DNA of 64,000 nt from Dictyostelium discoideum (GCA_000004695.1 CM000151.3:4928001-4992000); one strand, 5' to 3'; numbered from the stretch's first letter, positions 1 through 10,978 are shown. Numbers and translations are program-made. The notes: generated from the letters alone by a model not told the origin.

Positions 1-352
1 TATATTGTAAATTATTATTTATTATTTTTTTCTAATAAAAAAAAAAATAAAAAATAAAAAAATAAAAAATGAAAAAATAAATTAATTTATTTAAATTAGT
101 TAATGTATGAATAATTTTAAAAAGGAAAAATAACAATTTTTTTAATAAATTTTTAGAGAGTTAATTTTTAAGAAATAAAAAAATACTTAAATTGGGACCT
201 TGTTCCAAAGGTCCTTTTTTATTTAAAAAAAAAAAAAATAAAAAAATAAAAAAAAAAAAAATTTTATATAAATAATATTTAATTTTATTTTAATAATTGG
301 TTTTTTAAAATTTTATATAGTCGGACAGTTTTGTATTTGTATTTTTAATTAA

Positions 353-612
353 TTAAAAGCTATACATTTGTGGTCTTGTGAATACTGCTGCATTGTAATG
401 TTTATTTGTTCCGACTGTTTCATTTAATTCATATAAACCAGAGGATTCAGATTGTTTATTAATTAAACCTGTTGATTTAATTAATGATGGTGATGATGAT
501 AATAATTGATTTAATGATTCTAATTTTTTTTTTAAAAAAATATTAATATTAGTAATTATACTTTTTTTTTTTTTTTTTTTGTAAATAATAAAAAATACTT
601 ACTGAATAACAT
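353..612 (-). CDS. Small-protein paralog A (58 aa). Two exons: join(353..519,603..612) on the minus strand. Exon 1 is ATGTTATTCA (10 nt); the intron is phase 1 with a GTAAGT donor. Protein: MLFKSLNQLLSSSPSLIKSTGLINKQSESSGLYELNETVGTNKHYNAAVFTRPQMYSF.
   Basis: Hand translation of the minus strand. The ATG is followed directly by GTAAGT. Acceptor ttag|AATCATTAAATC restores a 55-codon open frame ending in TAA at 353-355. The same architecture recurs four more times. Confidence 0.6.
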
Positions 613-1415
613 TTTTTAAAGGTGTTTTTTATAATTAATTAATAAATAAATAATAAATAATTGAAGTTAATTAATTTAATTTTAAATTAAGAAATGAAGA
701 TATTAAAGAAAACTATAGTTTTTTAAATTTTTAGTTTTATTGTTTATTGTTAATTTTGTTTTTATTGTTAATGATTTAAAAAAAAAAAAAATTTCTATTT
801 ATAATTATGATGTTTAGGAAGTGAAAATGGTGGTAATCCATATTTTTTAAATTTTAAAAAGTTAATTTGTAGTTTGTTGTTGACAACATATCTGTATTAC
901 AATACATAATTAAAATTTATTTAATTTTGAATTAAATTTTTTCAAAAATCAGTACACCCACACACTCACACACCACCAAGTATCCTCACCCTTGTGTACA
1001 AGTATGAATGATATACATTTTTTAAAGCAAGTATAAATTAATAAATGATGATCAAGTAATGGAAATTTTAAAAAAAATAAAAAATATAAACAAAACAAAA
1101 AAATAAAAAAAAAGAAAAAATTTAACTTGTTTTAATTTTTGATTATATTTTTTTTTAATGTAATAAGATTTTAATGTAAAATTAAAAATTGAAAATATAT
1201 TATTTTATTTATTATAAAATTAAAAAACAAATAAAACCAAAATAAATAAAATAATACATAAAATATTTCTTTGAATATTTTTTTTTTTTTTTTTTTTAAA
1301 AAAAAAGTTTATTTTTAAATATATTAAAATAAATAATTCGGACATTGAATTTTTGAAAGTCTAATATTACATTGAATTTTTAAAAGTATAATTTAATAAA
1401 TTTTTAAAAAAATAT

Positions 1416-1589
1416 TTAAAAACAATAGCAAGGTTTAACAAAGAATAATGATTTTGCATATAAGTCTGTTGAACTAATTTCATTTTGTTTAAAGTTTAAT
1501 CCATTTTCATTTGTATTGGTATTTATTTTGTTAACCAAGTTTAATGGTTTTGAATTAATGATTTGACTAATTGATTCTATAAAATTTGG

Positions 1590-1623
<34 letters not shown>

Positions 1624-1704
1624 ATGGGTTTTATTAGTAATTGTTTTGGGTATGGTGATTACAATGATTAAGATCTTTGGAAGAAAATACATACTGAATA
1701 ACAT
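1416..1704 (-). CDS. Small-protein paralog B (56 aa). join(1416..1576,1695..1704). Exon 1 is ATGTTATTCA with donor GTATGT. Protein: MLFKSISQIINSKPLNLVNKINTNTNENGLNFKQNEISSTDLYAKSLFFVKPCYCF.
   Basis: Same 10-nt first exon and phase-1 intron as paralog A. Acceptor tttatag|AATCAATTAG. The open frame runs to TAA at 1416-1418. Confidence 0.55.
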
Positions 1705-2403
1705 TTTATTTGGTTTTTTATTTTTATTTTTATTTTCAAAGTTTTTTAAATAAATAATTGTTTTTTGTTTTTATAAATGATTGGAAAAAAAAAAAAAAAA
1801 ATCCTATTTATATTAATTTTAAAAAAAAAAAAAGAATAAAATAAATCGTTTTTTTTTTTTCCAAAAAAATAATGATTTAACTAGTTCGATTTAGGGTTGT
1901 TTGTGGGTTATAAAATATTTTTTAATATTAAAAAAAAAAAAAAAATAAAAAAAAATAAAAGATCAGATAAATTGAGATGGTGTGGAAGTGAGAGAATAAT
2001 AATTATCAAGTATAATAACAAAATTGTTGATGTAATTTATATTCTATTATTTTCAAAGATCTTTGTACACCATAAACCAAAATGAGAATACCTTTAAAAG
2101 ATTCTTTTAAGAATTTGCTTTTTTTTTATTTTATTACTGAAAAAAAAAAAAAAAAAAAAAAAAACGTTCTTTTTTTTTTTTTTTTTTTTTGTTTTTTTTT
2201 TTTTTTGTTAAATAATAATAAAAATTGTTCAATATGATTTAATATTAAAAGATAACTTGTGGAAATAAAATTTATAAAAATAAAAAGAATAATTTTAATA
2301 TTAAAAAAAAAAAAAAAAAAGAGGGACAAATCAAAAATTTTATTATTAAAAAAAAAAAATAAAAAATGGAAAACCCATCTTTTTTTAACTTTTTATTATT
2401 CTA

Positions 2404-2443
<40 letters not shown>

Positions 2444-2621
2444 AAGGAACAGCTTTTTAAAAAAAATAATAATATATATTATATTATTATTTATAAAATA
2501 ACAACAATATTAAAGTTGTTTTAAAAAGATAAAAAAAAAAAAAAAGATAAAAAAAAAATAAATTTTTTTTTTTTTTTTTTTTTCCAGTTTCCAAATTTAA
2601 AATAATTTTTTTTTTTTTTTT

Positions 2622-3317
2622 TTAACCTAATAAACTTGAGAAATCATAAAATCTTTCAGAACGTGACCATACAATTTGATTTAAATGTCTAAATTGTCTA
2701 ATTCTATGGAATGGAATGGCTTCATCTAATTTTAATAACTCGACATCACATAAACCATCGAAACGATCTTCATAGGTAATGATAAAATCTTGAATTTTAT
2801 CTTTTAATTGTTCATCATGTAAAATTCTATTATAAACTTCAATACTTGATGGTAATCTTTCTTTTTTCTTTACATCAGTTTCTTTTTCAATAATTGATTT
2901 TACTTCTAATTTTGTTAATTTCTTTGTTTTATTATTATTTTCATCTGATAATTCATCATTTGATTCAGACTCTGATGGTGATTCTATAGCAGTAGTAGTG
3001 GTTGTAGTTGTTGGTGAAGTTGATAATTTATTTTCTTTTAATTGTTTAATTGCTAATTTCTTTGCTTTTTTATATTCAATTGCAGCTTTATAATCTTTAT
3101 CAGTTCTTGGAATTACTTGACCAGTTTTACAACTTGTATGACCAGAATTTAATTTATTTAAATTATTATTTAATTGATTAGTTTGTAATGAATAATCTTT
3201 ACCATCAATATATGTTTGATCATAATCATAATCTTCATCTTCACTGTCATTATCATAGGTAGTGAATTCTCTTTCATTTGAATAAGTTGGATATGAGAAA
3301 TAAATTGTTGTCGACAT
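2622..3317 (-). CDS. Hypothetical protein, 231 aa. It has an acidic N-terminus, a Thr run, a Lys-rich middle and a conserved-looking C-terminal domain (…DFIITYEDRFDGLCDVELLKLDEAIPFHRIRQFRHLNQIVWSRSERFYDF).
   Basis: Long ORF with non-repetitive codon usage in an AT-rich background, starting at an ATG at 3317. I recognised no homolog. Confidence 0.5.
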   Translation of the reverse strand: MSTTIYFSYPTYSNEREFTTYDNDSEDEDYDYDQTYIDGKDYSLQTNQLNNNLNKLNSGHTSCKTGQVIPRTDKDYKAAIEYKKAKKLAIKQLKENKLSTSPTTTTTTTAIESPSESESNDELSDENNNKTKKLTKLEVKSIIEKETDVKKKERLPSSIEVYNRILHDEQLKDKIQDFIITYEDRFDGLCDVELLKLDEAIPFHRIRQFRHLNQIVWSRSERFYDFSSLLG

Positions 3318-3939
3318 GATTATATATTTATATGTATTTATTTATTTAATATTAAATTATTTGTTTTTGTTTGTTTATTTACAATTGTTTTTAAAAAAAA
3401 AGATATTTATTTATATTTATATATTGGTTTTATTTAATATATTTGTTTAATTTGTTTTGTTTTTTTTTATTGAATGTTTTTTTTTTATTTTAATTTATAG
3501 AAAAAAAAAAATTATAAATTAGAATTTTAATTGTATTTTCTCATTTTTTTTCTTGAAAAACATGAGAAAACGAAACATTTGAGTTTCAAAGAAAAATTGA
3601 GAAAATTTGGTTAAAAATAAAAAAAAAATAAAAAAAAAAATGAAAAAAAAAATAAAAAAATTAAAAAAAAAAAATTAAAAAAAAAAAAAAAAAAAAAAAA
3701 ATTTAAAGAATCCAAAACCCACCTTCAGTGTAAAATAAAAATGAAACAAATAATCTTTTGAAATAATTTTTTTTTTTTTTTATTTTTCTTTTTTTAATTT
3801 TTTTTTTATAACTAAAGTATTTGGATAATCTGGAAAGCTACCACAGTGTTATTTATTTATTTTATTTTATTTTAAATAATAATTTAATTTTTTTTGAATA
3901 TTATTTTTTAACATTTTTTTAGTAAAATTAAAAATAAAA

Positions 3940-4055
3940 CATTAAGAGTAGAGGGTATGAGCCTCGGTGAATATATCATTTCTATTGAAGTGCATTATTA
4001 ACGAATCCTCAGTATAATTGGAAAAATTGTGATGTGCCAAAAGATAATGATGAAA
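3940..4055. ncRNA. Candidate small structured RNA (strand unknown). A ~115 bp island of ~45% GC in a >85% AT intergenic region; it contains UGAUGA-like and CUGA-like boxes.
   Basis: Compositional island: agagtagagggtatgagcctcggtgaatatatcatttct...gtgatgtgccaaaagataatgatgaaattgg. No ORF on either strand. Confidence 0.2.
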
Positions 4056-4273
4056 TTGGAAAAGAAAAAAACAAATAAAACCATTACCAACTATTTTTTT
4101 TTTTTTTTTTGTTTTATATAAAATAAATAAATAATAATTAAAAAAAAAAAAAAAATCATTGAAATCTAGATTTATCTTAAAAAATTTTATTTTATTTTAT
4201 TTTTTTTAAAAATTATTTTAAAATAATGAGTCGCCCAAATAAAATTAAACATAATAATATCTATTAATTATTT

Positions 4274-4551
4274 TTAGAAACTATACATTTGTGGTCTTGT
4301 AAAGACTGCATTATTATAATGTTTATTTGTTCCAACAGTATTATTCATTTCAAATAAATTTGATAATTCATTAGAATTGATTGAAACTTGTACAATTTTA
4401 TTTGATGATGATGATGATGATGATGATGAAAATAATTGATTTAATGATTCTAAATTTAGAAAAAATAAAAAATATAATTTTAAAATTAATATATAATTAA
4501 TTTAATTAATAAAAATAAATTAGTAATAAATTAATACATACTGAATAACAT
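4274..4551 (-). CDS. Small-protein paralog C (61 aa). join(4274..4449,4542..4551). Protein: [61 protein letters not shown].
   Basis: Near-duplicate of paralog A. The similarity includes ~650 bp of 5' flank (compare 349-1010 with 4268-4920). Donor GTATGT, acceptor aaatttag|AATCATTAAATC. Confidence 0.6.
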
Positions 4552-5237
4552 TTTAATTTTTATTATATATTTTTTTTAATTAATAATTGAAGTTAATTTA
4601 AAAACTAATAATAGTATATATATTTTATTGTAATAGTTTTTTTTATTTGTTGTTGTTGATTTTGATTTTATTGTTGAATGATGATATAAAATTTTTTTTT
4701 TTTTCTATTTAAATAAAAAATCAAATTCAATTGAGGAAATGGTAGTTAAAAGTATTGTTTTAAAAATGATGGGATAATTTGTAGTTTGTTGTTGACAACA
4801 TATCTTAAACTACATGACTTTATTTAATTTTATTTAATTTTAATTTTAATTTTTATTTTTATTCACCCACTAACCCCACCAAGCAAAAAATCACGATACC
4901 TTTCACAAGTAAAAACGACTATATTTAGTTTATTTTTCACTTGTGGTAATATTTTAAAATATTTATATATATATATACTTATATATATAAAAATATAAAA
5001 GGGTAAAAGAGGGAAAATTAAATTTTAAAAATCATCATTTTTTAAATTTATATCCTGAATTTCATAACAATATTACCAAAACAATCTCATACTTGATTTT
5101 ATTCAATTATTTGATTACATTTATTTGGTATTAAATTTTATTTGTATCAAATTTAGTTTTCTCATTTTTTTAATAAAATATTTTATAATAAAATCGAAAA
5201 AGTAAAAGAAATAATAATAATAATAATAATTTTAAAA

Positions 5238-5280
<43 letters not shown>

Positions 5281-5431
5281 AATTGTTTTATTTTAGAATG
5301 AAAAAAAAAGATAGTTTATTTTTGATTTAATGATACAAATTTATTGAATTATTTTACATTTTTTAATTTTTAATTTTTTTTTTTCTTTAATTATTTCTTT
5401 TAAAAAAGAAAAATAACAATAATCATTATAA

Positions 5432-5697
5432 TTATAATTCAAAACAATAACTTGGTTTCACAAATAAAATTGATTTTGTTGTTATTCTTAATGAGTTGAT
5501 TTCATTTGAGTTATTTAAATAATTGTTAAAATCAATTGATACATTATTTATTTTATTATATTTAATTATTGAATTTGATTTAAAATTTTGATTTAATGAT
5601 TCTAAAAATTATGTTATATAAATATATATATATATATATATTAGTAAAAATATTAATTAAGATTAATTAATTTAATTTTTTACTTACTATATAGCAT
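5432..5697 (-). CDS. Small-protein paralog D (59 aa). join(5432..5601,5688..5697). Exon 1 is ATGCTATATA. Protein: MLYKSLNQNFKSNSIIKYNKINNVSIDFNNYLNNSNEINSLRITTKSILFVKPSYCFEL.
   Basis: GTAAGT donor immediately after a 10-nt exon 1. Acceptor aatttttag|AATCATTAAATC. The C-terminus VKPSYCF resembles paralog B. Confidence 0.5.
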
Positions 5698-6206
5698 TTT
5701 ATTTTTTATATTGTTTTTCTTTTTTTTTTAAAAAATTAAAATTTTTGGATATTTGTAGAATTGAGGTGAAATAAAATATAAATAAAAAAAATAAAAATTT
5801 TAATTTCTTTTTATAAATCAAAAAAAAAAATATATTAATATATATAAAAAATAATAATAATAATAATAAAAATAAATTAAAAATATTAAGTTTATTATTT
5901 CTTTTTTTTTTGAAAAAAGGGAAAAAAAAAAAAACTAAAATACAAGTATTGTAATTAAAATGTTGATGCAGTAAAATTAATTTATTTTTATTTAATCAAA
6001 TAATAAATGAAGAATAAAATAAAAATTAATAATTTTTAAAATTTCATACATTCCATAATAAAAAAAGTTTAAAAAATTTCTTAAACTAAAATTTGTGCGA
6101 GTGTGGGTGAAATAAATTATTTTTTTTTTTTTATTTTTTATTTTTTTATTTTTTTTATTTCTTGTTTTTACTTAATTTTTATTTTCTAAAATAAAAATTA
6201 TTCCTT

Positions 6207-6207
6207 A

Positions 6208-6267
<60 letters not shown>
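6207..6267. repeat. (ATT)n microsatellite, about 20 units, immediately 3' of small-protein paralog E.
   Basis: Direct reading. Confidence 0.9.
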
Positions 6268-6268
6268 T

Positions 6269-6530
6269 TTAAAGATTTGTCCAAAACATTTGTGGTCTTG
6301 TAAAGACTGCACTAGCTTTTACTGATGATGATAAACTATTTTGAGAATATGAAATACTAGTTAAATCATTATTTTGATGATTAAAATTATTATTTAATTT
6401 ATTATATCCATTTATATTAATTACTTGGTTTATTGATTCTATTAATAAAAATAAAGATAAAAATTTTTTTATTAATATACAATTAATAATTTATAATTAA
6501 AAAAAAAAAATTGAACCTACTAAATAACAT
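6269..6530 (-). CDS. Small-protein paralog E (59 aa). join(6269..6438,6521..6530). Protein: MLFKSINQVINING...SAVFTRPQMFWTNL.
   Basis: Exon 1 is ATGTTATTTA with donor GTAGGT. Acceptor ttattaatag|AATCAATAAACC. The C-terminal AVFTRPQM block is shared with paralogs A and C. Confidence 0.5.
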
Positions 6531-6841
6531 TTTTATAAATAAAGGATTATTATTATTATTAATTAAAATTTGAATTTATTGAATTGGAATTGAAATTCAA
6601 ATTTCAAAATAAAAAATAAACAAAAATATTGAAACTATAAAATATAATTATTTATTTATTATTTTTTTTTTTTTCTTTTATAACATTTTAAAAATTTAGT
6701 TTTTTATTTTTATTTTTTTTTTTAATACAATTATTTTAAAAATAATAAATAAAAAATAATAATTTCAAAGTACAACTTACCACCAAACACACAAACACAC
6801 AAAATATCCAATTAAAATTAACACGTATATCGTGTCAAATT

Positions 6842-6883
<42 letters not shown>

Positions 6884-7743
6884 GAAAAAAAGGGACTAGT
6901 GAATTTAAAAACAAAAGTATACTAATTATAGTATTTTGGAAATTATTTTTTATTTTTATTTTTATTTTTTATTTTATTTTTTTTTTTTAGCAACTGCAAA
7001 ATGGTATTTATTATTTTTTGTAATATTTTAATTTCATTGTATTCCCAATTATTTTTTTTACTTGGTATCTAAATTAAATAGGGGGTGGTGGGTTTACTTT
7101 ATTTGGATTGATAGTATGGATTTAAAAAAAATTATAAAATAAAATATTGTTCTTTTTAATTTTTCCTTTTTTTTTTTTTTTTTTGGTGGTAAAATAATTA
7201 GAATTACAAAATGGTGGTTGGTGGTTCTTATATTTTATTAAAATATCGTAAAATTCTAATAATTTTAAAAAACTTGGGTAAATTAAGATTTAATTATTTT
7301 AAAAGAAAAATAGTAATTTAAATTACCAAATATCATATGTCAACTAATAATTACAACCAATAATTTGGAAAAATTATCAAAAAAAAAAAAATATAATAAA
7401 AGAAAAGAAAATAATAAGTTTATTATTTATACTAAAATAAATTAAATGAAATAAATTAAATGAAATAAAATGAAATAAAATAAAAATAAAAAAAAAATAA
7501 TAACAAAATTTTAGAAGATTTTTGAACGACAAGTTTCAAAACCTTGATCTCACCCAATTAAATCTATTTTTCATTATTGACAAGGCTATAATAATAATAA
7601 TAATTGTAAAAATTGAGACTTTAAAAATAAAAAAATAAAAAAAAAAAAGTGGTTGATTTAAAAAATCATAATCGAGAAAATATATTTGTTAACCAATATT
7701 AAAATTCCCTTAAATTTATTTGAATAATTCTTCATCTCTTTAT

Positions 7744-9696: not shown

Positions 9697-10978
9697 TTCG
9701 ACTTTGTATAATACATGAAGGAAGCCTTTATGTATTATATGTATTAATGGCTCATTAATAAATCAGTGGGAGTGCATGTATCATCATGATCTTTTAAAAG
9801 TTGAGTGATTATTAAAATATAAATATTAAATGTATTTGGTACCAAATTCTTTAAATTGGAATTGAGGATTTACATTTTGACAATCATTTGTTTGAATTTT
9901 ATAAAATTGAATACCATTGATTAAAATACTTGATATTTTTGAAAATTGGATTCCTCCATAAGAATTATTAAATGAAAATCTTCAACCTTTGTATCAAATA
10001 TATAGTATTAAAATTATAAATAAATAATTTTGTAAAAAAAAAAAAAAAAAAAAAATTTTGGTATTGATTACAATAATAATTTGTTTAAAAAAAAAAGATT
10101 TATTTTATTGTTTTTACATACAGTTCAAGTAAATCTGTTTTAACAAGTATTCTTGATACTTCCTTTTTTTTACACAAACATACATACATGCTCTTTTATT
10201 TTTAAAATTATCTTGAAAATGTAACTGCATACCATTTGTTCCAATTAGAATATAATTTAAAAATTCGAAAAATATGTTCAGATTTTCTATCTTTTTTAAC
10301 TGCGTAATTTGCAATATCCAGTTTTTTAGTTGTATTTATTTCACCATAAATACCACGACTTTTTATCTTATTGAATGAAGTAAAATAGATGAATAACCAA
10401 TTTTTTCTTTATTTTTGTCATTGAGAGAAATCTTGATATTTTTTATTGCTGTTAGGATTCCACCATTAGAACATTGTTTACTTGAATTATAATTAAAGCT
10501 TTTTCATATAGATTTCTAATAGTATCGTAATATTAATCGCTACGTTTTTCTTTTGTAGCAAGTACACGTTCTCTTATTCCATCATCTGAAATTAATTTAA
10601 AAATCTGTTTGAACCTACACCATTATTATTTAAACAAATTTTCAATTGATTTAATAGTTTCCAAAAATAAATAAAAAATAAATAAAAATTTTAATATAAT
10701 TTAATTCTTTTAAAAAATAATATATTATATCATTGTGTACTTAAAATTCTAAAATATTATTAAAAAAAAAATTCATTATTATTTTTATTATTAATTTCAT
10801 AACTTATTAAATTTTGATTGTATAATTGTTCATTTTTTCTTTTAATTTCATTATTTTCTTCTATTGATTGGTTTTTGGATCAATTTCTTAAATAAATAAT
10901 ATTTGATGATAATATTTTTAGTTAAATTATCATTTTTATATTAAACGATGTGTTATTAAACACTAATTAATATTGTAT

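Follow-up and report, generated by a model that had tools for sequence, protein, structure and literature searches.

A tandem cluster of conserved two-exon micro-genes with a 10-nucleotide first exon in Dictyostelium discoideum

The first 7 kb of a 64,000-nucleotide (nt) stretch of Dictyostelium discoideum DNA (GCA_000004695.1, CM000151.3:4928001-4992000; called the window below) carry five very small genes on the minus strand, here named A to E, each opening with an exon of only ten nucleotides. The locus raises the question of what such genes are: a locally amplified, fast-diverging family of small and possibly secreted proteins, as the original prediction from the bare sequence had it, or something older and more constrained. 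The analysis favours the latter. At a probability of about 0.75, the genes belong to a tandem cluster that is old and conserved, and whose two-exon developmental micro-genes, each with a promoter of its own, encode small disordered proteins.

Gene models were rebuilt by pattern scan and translation across the whole window, and all five were recovered at exactly the coordinates first given for them (Table 1): minus-strand paralogues with a 10-nt exon 1, a phase-1 GT..AG intron of 82–118 nt and a product of 56–61 amino acids (aa), in a region of 14–17% G+C. Exon 1 reads ATGTTATTCA in A, B and C, ATGCTATATA in D and ATGTTATTTA in E, and the pattern ATGTTATTCAGTA describes it together with the 5' splice site. 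Exon 2 was thought always to begin AATCA(T/A)TAAA, which is correct except for B, beginning AATCAATTAG; likewise, the proteins start with MLFKS(L/I)NQ save in B (MLFKSISQ) and D (MLYKSLNQ). The proposed division of the C-termini into two types is real. Type 1, AVFTRPQM(Y/F).., is found in A (AVFTRPQMYSF), C and E (variant AVFTRPQMFWTNL), and type 2, (L/F)FVKP(C/S)YCF, in B (FFVKPCYCF) and D (variant LFVKPSYCFEL), and both fit one aligned motif, F-x-(R/K)-P-x(0,1)-x-Y. Mutual similarity of the micro-genes is far beyond chance (profile E-values of 1e-15 to 1e-22), and no sixth copy was found in the window, where these five sites alone score. The exact products of A, B, C and E are present in the NCBI and UniProt sets for AX4 as hypothetical proteins from chromosome 2, which bears out the initial guess of a dictyostelid source. 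That of gene D was not found in a collection of about 15 billion proteins which includes these sets, and since C and E carry the successive accessions XP_643716 and XP_643717, between which no further gene would fit, D appears to be unannotated.

The age of the array can be judged from Dictyostelium firmibasis, where we examined 30 kb around the orthologues (loci L001 and L002). Ten members are found there in a single orientation, in the order E', D', C', a gene with an MJ1316 domain, B', A' and then four more, and the order in the window, E-D-C-MJ1316 gene-B-A, is the same. All ten have the 10-nt exon 1, which is ATGTTATTCA in seven and otherwise varies as ATGTTAATTA, ATGATATTCA and ATGTTATCAA, followed by a phase-1 intron of 70–115 nt. 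Each of the five window genes has a one-to-one syntenic orthologue, and since gene order and mini-exon are common to both species, the array predates their split and is not the result of recent local amplification. It is also only a part of a larger cluster and family. The accessions of DDB_G0275229 and DDB_G0275231 adjoin that of A and so, together with the D. firmibasis synteny, suggest that the D. discoideum array probably extends past the left edge of the window.

Conservation of position is accompanied by conservation of coding capacity. Over the five syntenic orthologue pairs the ratio of nonsynonymous to synonymous substitution rates (dN/dS, Nei-Gojobori method) is 0.36 overall, with dS of about 0.48. 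It is 0.14 in the termini (the first 8 and last 13 codons) and 0.48 in the middle, a contrast that is partly circular because the division was chosen after the paralogue alignment had been viewed, while the overall value is free of this circularity. Orthologues differ in length by 3, -3, 12, 6 and 6 nt, in all five cases a multiple of three that keeps the frame. Exon 2 is 75–85% identical between orthologues against a non-orthologous background of 68%, while introns (53–70%) do not rise above theirs (58%). On these comparisons the five micro-genes are protein-coding and under purifying selection, and with four of them annotated and all syntenic in D. firmibasis they are real paralogous genes, whose peptides are kept in a related species beyond chance. 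The expected fast divergence did not materialise: constraint is relaxed in the Ser/Asn-rich middle only, and there is no sign of positive selection. The same data bear on the view that the open reading frames (ORFs) are untranslated, being chance ORFs or annotation artefacts in developmentally regulated non-coding transcripts. That view would accommodate the lack of any predicted fold and a proteomic null result, in which six identifiers (gene IDs of four window genes, and UniProt accessions for two of these) were not found in the supplements of one life-cycle proteome paper. However, ORFs of 54–65 codons have been kept open in DNA of about 15% GC in more than 20 paralogues and orthologues, exon 2 but not the introns is conserved above background, and dN/dS together with the frame-keeping indels largely excludes this reading, which we regard as highly improbable.

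Direct information on deployment comes from published RNA sequencing. Kin et al. (2018; PMC6198379) re-tabulate the time course of Parikh et al. (2010) in a supplementary table that includes gene B (DDB_G0275131), with values of 0 at 0 h, 0 at 4 h, 2.85 at 8 h, 29.5 at 12 h, 25.7 at 16 h, 12.1 at 20 h and 10.1 at 24 h. By cell type the values are 61.4 in prestalk, 8.35 in prespore, 1.89 in cup, 0 in spore, 0.13 in stalk and 0 in vegetative cells (PMC6198379), so that prestalk exceeds prespore about 7-fold. Gene B is thus transcribed, off in growth, switched on after aggregation (8–12 h) and prestalk-enriched.

What do these genes encode? The family proteins are 54–65 aa long, with 0–2 Cys and few Gly. 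All 11 members scored contain 36–55% Ser/Asn/Thr/Gln, and ten of them carry a net charge of +2 to +4, the exception being DDB_G0275231 at -1. AlphaFold2, run on a 12-sequence alignment, gives a mean predicted local distance difference test score of 57 and no secondary structure. From its N-terminus the chain consists of a nearly invariant octapeptide, MLFKS(L/I)(N/S)Q, with the phase-1 intron after its tenth nucleotide; a variable low-complexity Ser/Asn-rich spacer; and the C-terminal motif given above. The description that suits the products best is that of intrinsically disordered micro-proteins, conserved in a motif at each end and variable in the spacer. When every member was scanned against Pfam, no family matched and just weak chance hits came up. 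Readings of the C-terminal motif as a CaaX box, a WW-binding PPxY or a YxxPhi signal were rejected, since its residues misfit these consensus patterns when compared by eye with general knowledge.

Secretion, as first suggested, finds little in the proteins to carry it. A signal-peptide hydrophobic core (about 7 or more residues) was not found in any of the 11 members, the longest hydrophobic run in the first 25 residues being 2–3 by a simple hydropathy test rather than a dedicated predictor, and there is no membrane segment, the maximum 19-residue hydropathy of the scored members being at most 0.58. The proteins could still be exported or processed signalling-peptide precursors, with an N-terminal leader and a C-terminal peptide (for example QMYSF or CYCF after (R/K)-Pro) released by non-classical export. 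Conserved ends around a variable middle are seen in many processed precursors, an Arg or Lys stands before the invariant Pro, and the SigN proteins, an organisational analogue introduced below, were seen in small vesicles and have been proposed to be secreted. Against this, besides the lack of a hydrophobic core or membrane segment, no processing enzyme is linked to the locus, the sole embedded neighbour being the MJ1316-domain gene; nothing from experiment hints at such peptides, and a literature search for the motifs found no match, so that we consider this origin improbable. Fungal MSDIN cyclic-peptide precursors have a conserved leader, a variable core and a conserved tail. From general knowledge, precursors of this type resemble the family in being short and in having a variable middle between conserved termini, with an invariant Pro close to one of these, but here there is neither a linked processing enzyme nor any sign of processing, and the variable part consists of low-complexity Ser/Asn sequence where those precursors have a defined core, which makes it a resemblance only. 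It is less probable still that these are small mitochondrial proteins whose N-terminal 20–25 residues act as an import presequence. In most members the first ~26 residues contain 1–4 Lys and no acidic residue, and residues 1–11 have a sizeable helical hydrophobic moment of 1.1–2.2. Presequences, however, are normally poorly conserved, while the octapeptide is nearly invariant in more than 20 genes; acidic-free Ser/Asn-rich stretches are common in Dictyostelium proteins; and post-aggregative, prestalk-enriched expression is atypical of mitochondrial components.

The family is not confined to the window. Profile searches identified further D. discoideum members on chromosome 2 (DDB_G0275229, DDB_G0275231, DDB_G0275175, DDB_G0275827, DDB_G0275825 and DDB_G0271318) and one, DDB_G0287205, on another chromosome, so that D. 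discoideum has at least 12 family genes and D. firmibasis at least 10. An exhaustive profile search of 1.84 billion representative proteins returned members from these two species only, apart from a spurious match to one fungal repeat protein. No papers came up in the literature for ten family gene IDs or for the peptide motifs. The family itself is undescribed: it matches no Pfam family and no paper on it was found. A metagenome scan with TTYACAAGACCACAAATGT gave 10 matches, 8 in unrelated ORFs of 90–569 aa and 2 in ORFs of 29 aa, none of them a family member. In that material the peptide FTRPQMYNYPFM occurs within ORFs of 334–569 aa on low-GC contigs (L004, L005, L007-L009 and L011), encoded by the same 19-nt string as the family C-terminal motif; since it lies inside an unrelated protein, we judged this to be a coincidence.

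A well-described system does come close. The sigN family (hssA/2C/7E; Pfam PF05710) has 96 genes, 89 of which consist of a 13-nt exon-1 ORF, one intron of 66–111 nt and a second exon; the proteins, of 75–93 aa, are Ser/Cys/Gly-rich and predicted to contain a hydrophobic segment (Vicente et al., 2008; PMC2257962). According to the same study, these genes are found in chromosome 2 clusters, induced at 10–12 h, expressed in prestalk cells and furnished with GBF boxes in their promoters; SigN proteins were observed in small vesicles, with secretion proposed, and deletion of 13 sigN genes produced no phenotype (PMC2257962). The earlier statement that the window family is unrecognised therefore stands as far as Pfam and the literature on the family go, but it misses this close parallel. 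As with sigN, we see a lineage-restricted multigene family of very small proteins, made by two-exon genes whose exon 1 covers no more than the opening codons and closes in phase 1 (13 nt in sigN, 10 nt here), with introns of comparable size (70–118 nt here). In both, the intron stands directly before a conserved Ser-(Ile/Leu): MTILA-SISSIGN in an authentic hssA-type gene and MLFK-S(L/I)xQ here, the hyphen marking the intron. Both form tandem clusters on chromosome 2, are silent in growth, induced at about 8–12 h and prestalk-enriched (here gene B only), carry upstream GBF-type boxes (known here as motifs only), have promoter blocks common within subgroups and possess Ser-rich N-terminal halves. 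The differences are equally clear. Our proteins are shorter (54–65 aa), basic and Ser/Asn-rich with almost no Gly, in contrast to the Ser/Cys/Gly-rich SigN proteins; the predicted hydrophobic segment is missing and a C-terminal F-x-(R/K)-P-x-Y motif of their own is present; and the array genes all point one way, while sigN genes are arranged in inverted pairs. The exon-1 ORF is 10 nt and not 13 nt in all five window genes and all ten D. firmibasis genes.

Could the family nevertheless be a true but highly diverged hssA/2C/7E branch, which lost one exon-1 codon and replaced the Gly/Cys-rich half but kept the mini-exon, intron position, N-terminal module and regulation? The phase-1 intron splits the codon directly before Ser-(Ile/Leu) in both families, the difference between 13 and 10 nt is exactly one codon, and the chromosome 2 clusters, intron size, 8–12 h induction, prestalk enrichment and GBF boxes are in common. 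When N-termini are aligned to hssA with a one-codon gap, B (6–7 of 13 identities) and E (4–5 of 13) score well above shuffles (p of about 0.0002–0.001), in a test with a register chosen post hoc in low-complexity sequence and with a single reference sequence. On the other side, the N-termini of A and D are not significant against shuffles, and neither the Gly/Cys-rich region of SigN nor its predicted hydrophobic segment has a counterpart here. Comparison of the family profile with an authentic hssA-type sequence in hhalign gives a probability of 0.3% and one aligned column, and neither the five window proteins nor any of the 12 aligned members matches PF05710 even at E<=10. Since these formal homology tests fail, the family is not assigned to hssA/2C/7E, and we view descent from it as possible but on balance unlikely. 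No hssA-type genes with a 13-nt mini-exon were found in the window or in the other loci examined. The hssA-type reference gene came from D. dimigraforme (JBTAPM010000036.1, L013:10397-10727), and its first exon is 14 nt rather than 13 nt because of an extra T in a homopolymer; this could be an assembly error or a sign of a pseudogene, and the annotated ACTA71_001693 consequently has an artificial N-terminus. The best description is a sequence-distinct family of the same kind as sigN. We also considered srsA (DDB_G0289521), another small Dictyostelium-specific protein from a developmentally regulated gene, on account of its name and size, and rejected it: it lies at a different locus, is listed with transmembrane topology (class 'T') and was absent from all family searches, and SrsA is induced at once on starvation or hypoxia while gene B is induced after aggregation.

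The regions upstream of the genes point to separate promoters. The GBF element consensus is (T/G)G(T/G)G(T/G)G(T/G) (PMC2257962), and positions 1–7200 contain 13 such heptamers where 1.3 are expected, about 10-fold more, the maximum in 300 shuffles being 5. Every one of the 13 lies 198–552 nt ahead of an ATG, no micro-gene lacks one, and D. firmibasis has kept several of them. The conserved block reported upstream of A and C is present, although the positions first given were 3–4 nt off: GATATGTTGTCAACAACAAACTACAAATTA has two exact copies in the window, at 863–892 and 4775–4804 and about 250 nt upstream of the two genes, where none would be expected, and its core is kept at the same distance upstream of A'. 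Upstream of C this 30-nt block belongs to a 44-nt stretch identical in D. firmibasis; with synonymous divergence of about 0.48, such a perfect match implies constraint. The ~650 bp of upstream sequence said to be shared by A and C turned out to be patchy (67% identity overall, against 52–66% for other paralogue pairs), and what is shared lies in discrete blocks, namely a perfect block of 31 nt, a GT-rich box and, closer to the ATG, some short blocks. Genes B and D, of type 2, have their own common upstream module, CATCAACA...TACTTG. Past the stop codons of A, B and C, at 25–75 nt, stands a CG-containing element with consensus (G/T)(G/T)(C/T)CGA(C/A), conserved after A', B' and C' and absent after D and E, which could be an element of the 3' untranslated region or of 3'-end formation.

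Table 1. Positions of the micro-genes, their D. firmibasis orthologues, the embedded gene and flanking elements. Window positions are counted from its first nucleotide; negative distances (nt) are relative to the ATG.
Feature	Position (strand)	Structure or sequence	Size, distance or remark
Gene A, DDB_G0275233	353-612 (-)	exon 1 603-612; intron 520-602 (83 nt); exon 2 353-519	58 aa
Gene B, DDB_G0275131	1416-1704 (-)	exon 1 1695-1704; intron 1577-1694 (118 nt); exon 2 1416-1576	56 aa
Gene C, DDB_G0275135	4274-4551 (-)	exon 1 4542-4551; intron 4450-4541 (92 nt); exon 2 4274-4449	61 aa
Gene D, apparently unannotated in AX4	5432-5697 (-)	exon 1 5688-5697; intron 5602-5687 (86 nt); exon 2 5432-5601	59 aa
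Gene E, DDB_G0275137	6269-6530 (-)	exon 1 6521-6530; intron 6439-6520 (82 nt); exon 2 6269-6438	59 aa
A', D. firmibasis	L001:16497-16756		
B', D. firmibasis	L001:15481-15739		
C', D. firmibasis, RB653_002222	L001:10001-10260		
D', D. firmibasis, P0018	L001:8974-9262		annotated
E', D. firmibasis	L001:8312-8555		
MJ1316-domain gene, DDB_G0275133	2622-3317 (-)	single exon	231 aa
Block upstream of A	863-892 (-)	GATATGTTGTCAACAACAAACTACAAATTA, contains palindrome GTTGTCAAC	30 nt; about -251 to -280
Block upstream of C	4777-4820 (-)	AAGTCATGTAGTTTAAGATATGTTGTCAACAACAAACTACAAAT, contains GTTGTCAAC	44 nt; identical in D. firmibasis (L001 about 9715-9760)
GT-rich box upstream of A	954-974 (-)	GGTGTGTGAGTGTGTGGGTGT, four overlapping GBF matches	about -342; TGTGTGGGTG conserved in D. 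firmibasis
Two CA-type GBF-like heptamers upstream of B	1902-1908, 1979-1985 (-)		-198, -275
GBF-like heptamer upstream of C	4874-4880 (-)	GGTGGGG	-323; in the GT-rich stretch first noted
GBF-like heptamer upstream of D	6102-6108 (-)	ACCCACA	405 nt upstream
GT-rich box upstream of E	6787-6801 (-)	TGTGTGTTTGTGTGT	-257; conserved in D. firmibasis
CG-containing element after A	320-326 (-)	GTCCGAC	27 nt past stop codon
CG-containing element after B	1337-1343 (-)	GTCCGAA	
CG-containing element after C	4229-4242 (-)	TTATTTGGGCGACT; element GGGCGACT	

Several other features of the region were recorded. DDB_G0275133 lies inside the micro-gene array in both species and is expressed throughout development; its protein carries an MJ1316 RNA cyclic-group-end recognition domain at the C-terminus (PF04457, E=1.6e-9). 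A long (TAA)n microsatellite, at about 6210–6268, begins directly past the stop codon of E. About 140 nt downstream of A, amid DNA of ~10% GC, is a GC-rich hairpin, GGACCTT-TGGAAC-AAGGTCC (195–214), which occurs once in the window and of which no exact copy was found in the D. firmibasis loci. No Rfam match was found within positions 1–7300. In D. firmibasis, the model RB653_002264 for A' has been cut to 42 aa, where modelling in full with the 10-nt exon gives 57 aa; a 56-aa member at L002:7712-7974 is unannotated; and an odd 21-aa model overlaps the member at L002:11139-11392, whose exon 1 is ATGTTATCAA. The annotation of this species was made by MAKER with Trinity transcripts and the D. discoideum proteome, an origin compatible with transcript support for the mini-exons, not proof of it.

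How, then, might the cluster work? We propose, tentatively and with low confidence in the scheme as a whole, that transcription would be GBF-dependent, as in sigN genes, and that the proteins would have redundant actions in prestalk or anterior-like cells. Targeting or recognition might be the task of the short, conserved, amphipathic N-terminus and partner binding that of the C-terminal Pro/Tyr motif, with the spacer as a flexible linker between them; the micro-proteins would then be a sequence-unrelated counterpart of those of sigN/hssA. Several points weigh against both this scheme and the broader reading of an old cluster of developmental micro-genes. Expression values were found for gene B alone among the five, and the isolated paralogue DDB_G0271318 is at zero in vegetative and terminal cell types. 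The putative GBF dependence is read from upstream motifs, and G/C-containing islands are common in Dictyostelium promoters; the roles given to the N- and C-terminal motifs are likewise conjectural. Conservation is known from two close species only (dS of about 0.48), the splice junctions and products are predicted from gene models and conservation, and the proteomic null result described above belongs here too.

The likeness to sigN also allows a bolder and rather unlikely reading, in which the mini-exon and the N-terminal module (Met, 2–3 hydrophobic or small residues, the phase-1 intron and Ser-(Ile/Leu)-x-(Ser/Gln)-(Ile/Leu)) would be a cassette common to more than 100 Dictyostelium micro-genes with unrelated mature parts, comprising sigN/hssA/2C/7E and the window family. 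If it were true, the cassette would be a non-canonical leader, specific to the lineage, through which post-aggregative micro-proteins are targeted, exported or processed, and it would have spread by duplications in which the C-terminal payload was replaced.

Returning to the cluster of conserved developmental micro-genes that we favour, part of this picture was already known: four of the five genes are annotated, and the kind of system has been described in Dictyostelium. New are the family, which was undescribed, and its lack of a detectable sequence link to sigN. For annotation there is a gain of one apparently unannotated AX4 gene and of three corrected D. firmibasis gene models, and the compact cluster of about 7 kb is removable by a single deletion. 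Dictyostelium has large lineage-specific micro-gene families switched on at multicellularity, and here a second one, unrelated in sequence, has the same odd architecture, clustering and type of promoter motif, with similar timing for one member. That two sequence-unrelated families are built alike suggests that they share either an origin or a constraint on the way in which genes of this sort are constructed and used.

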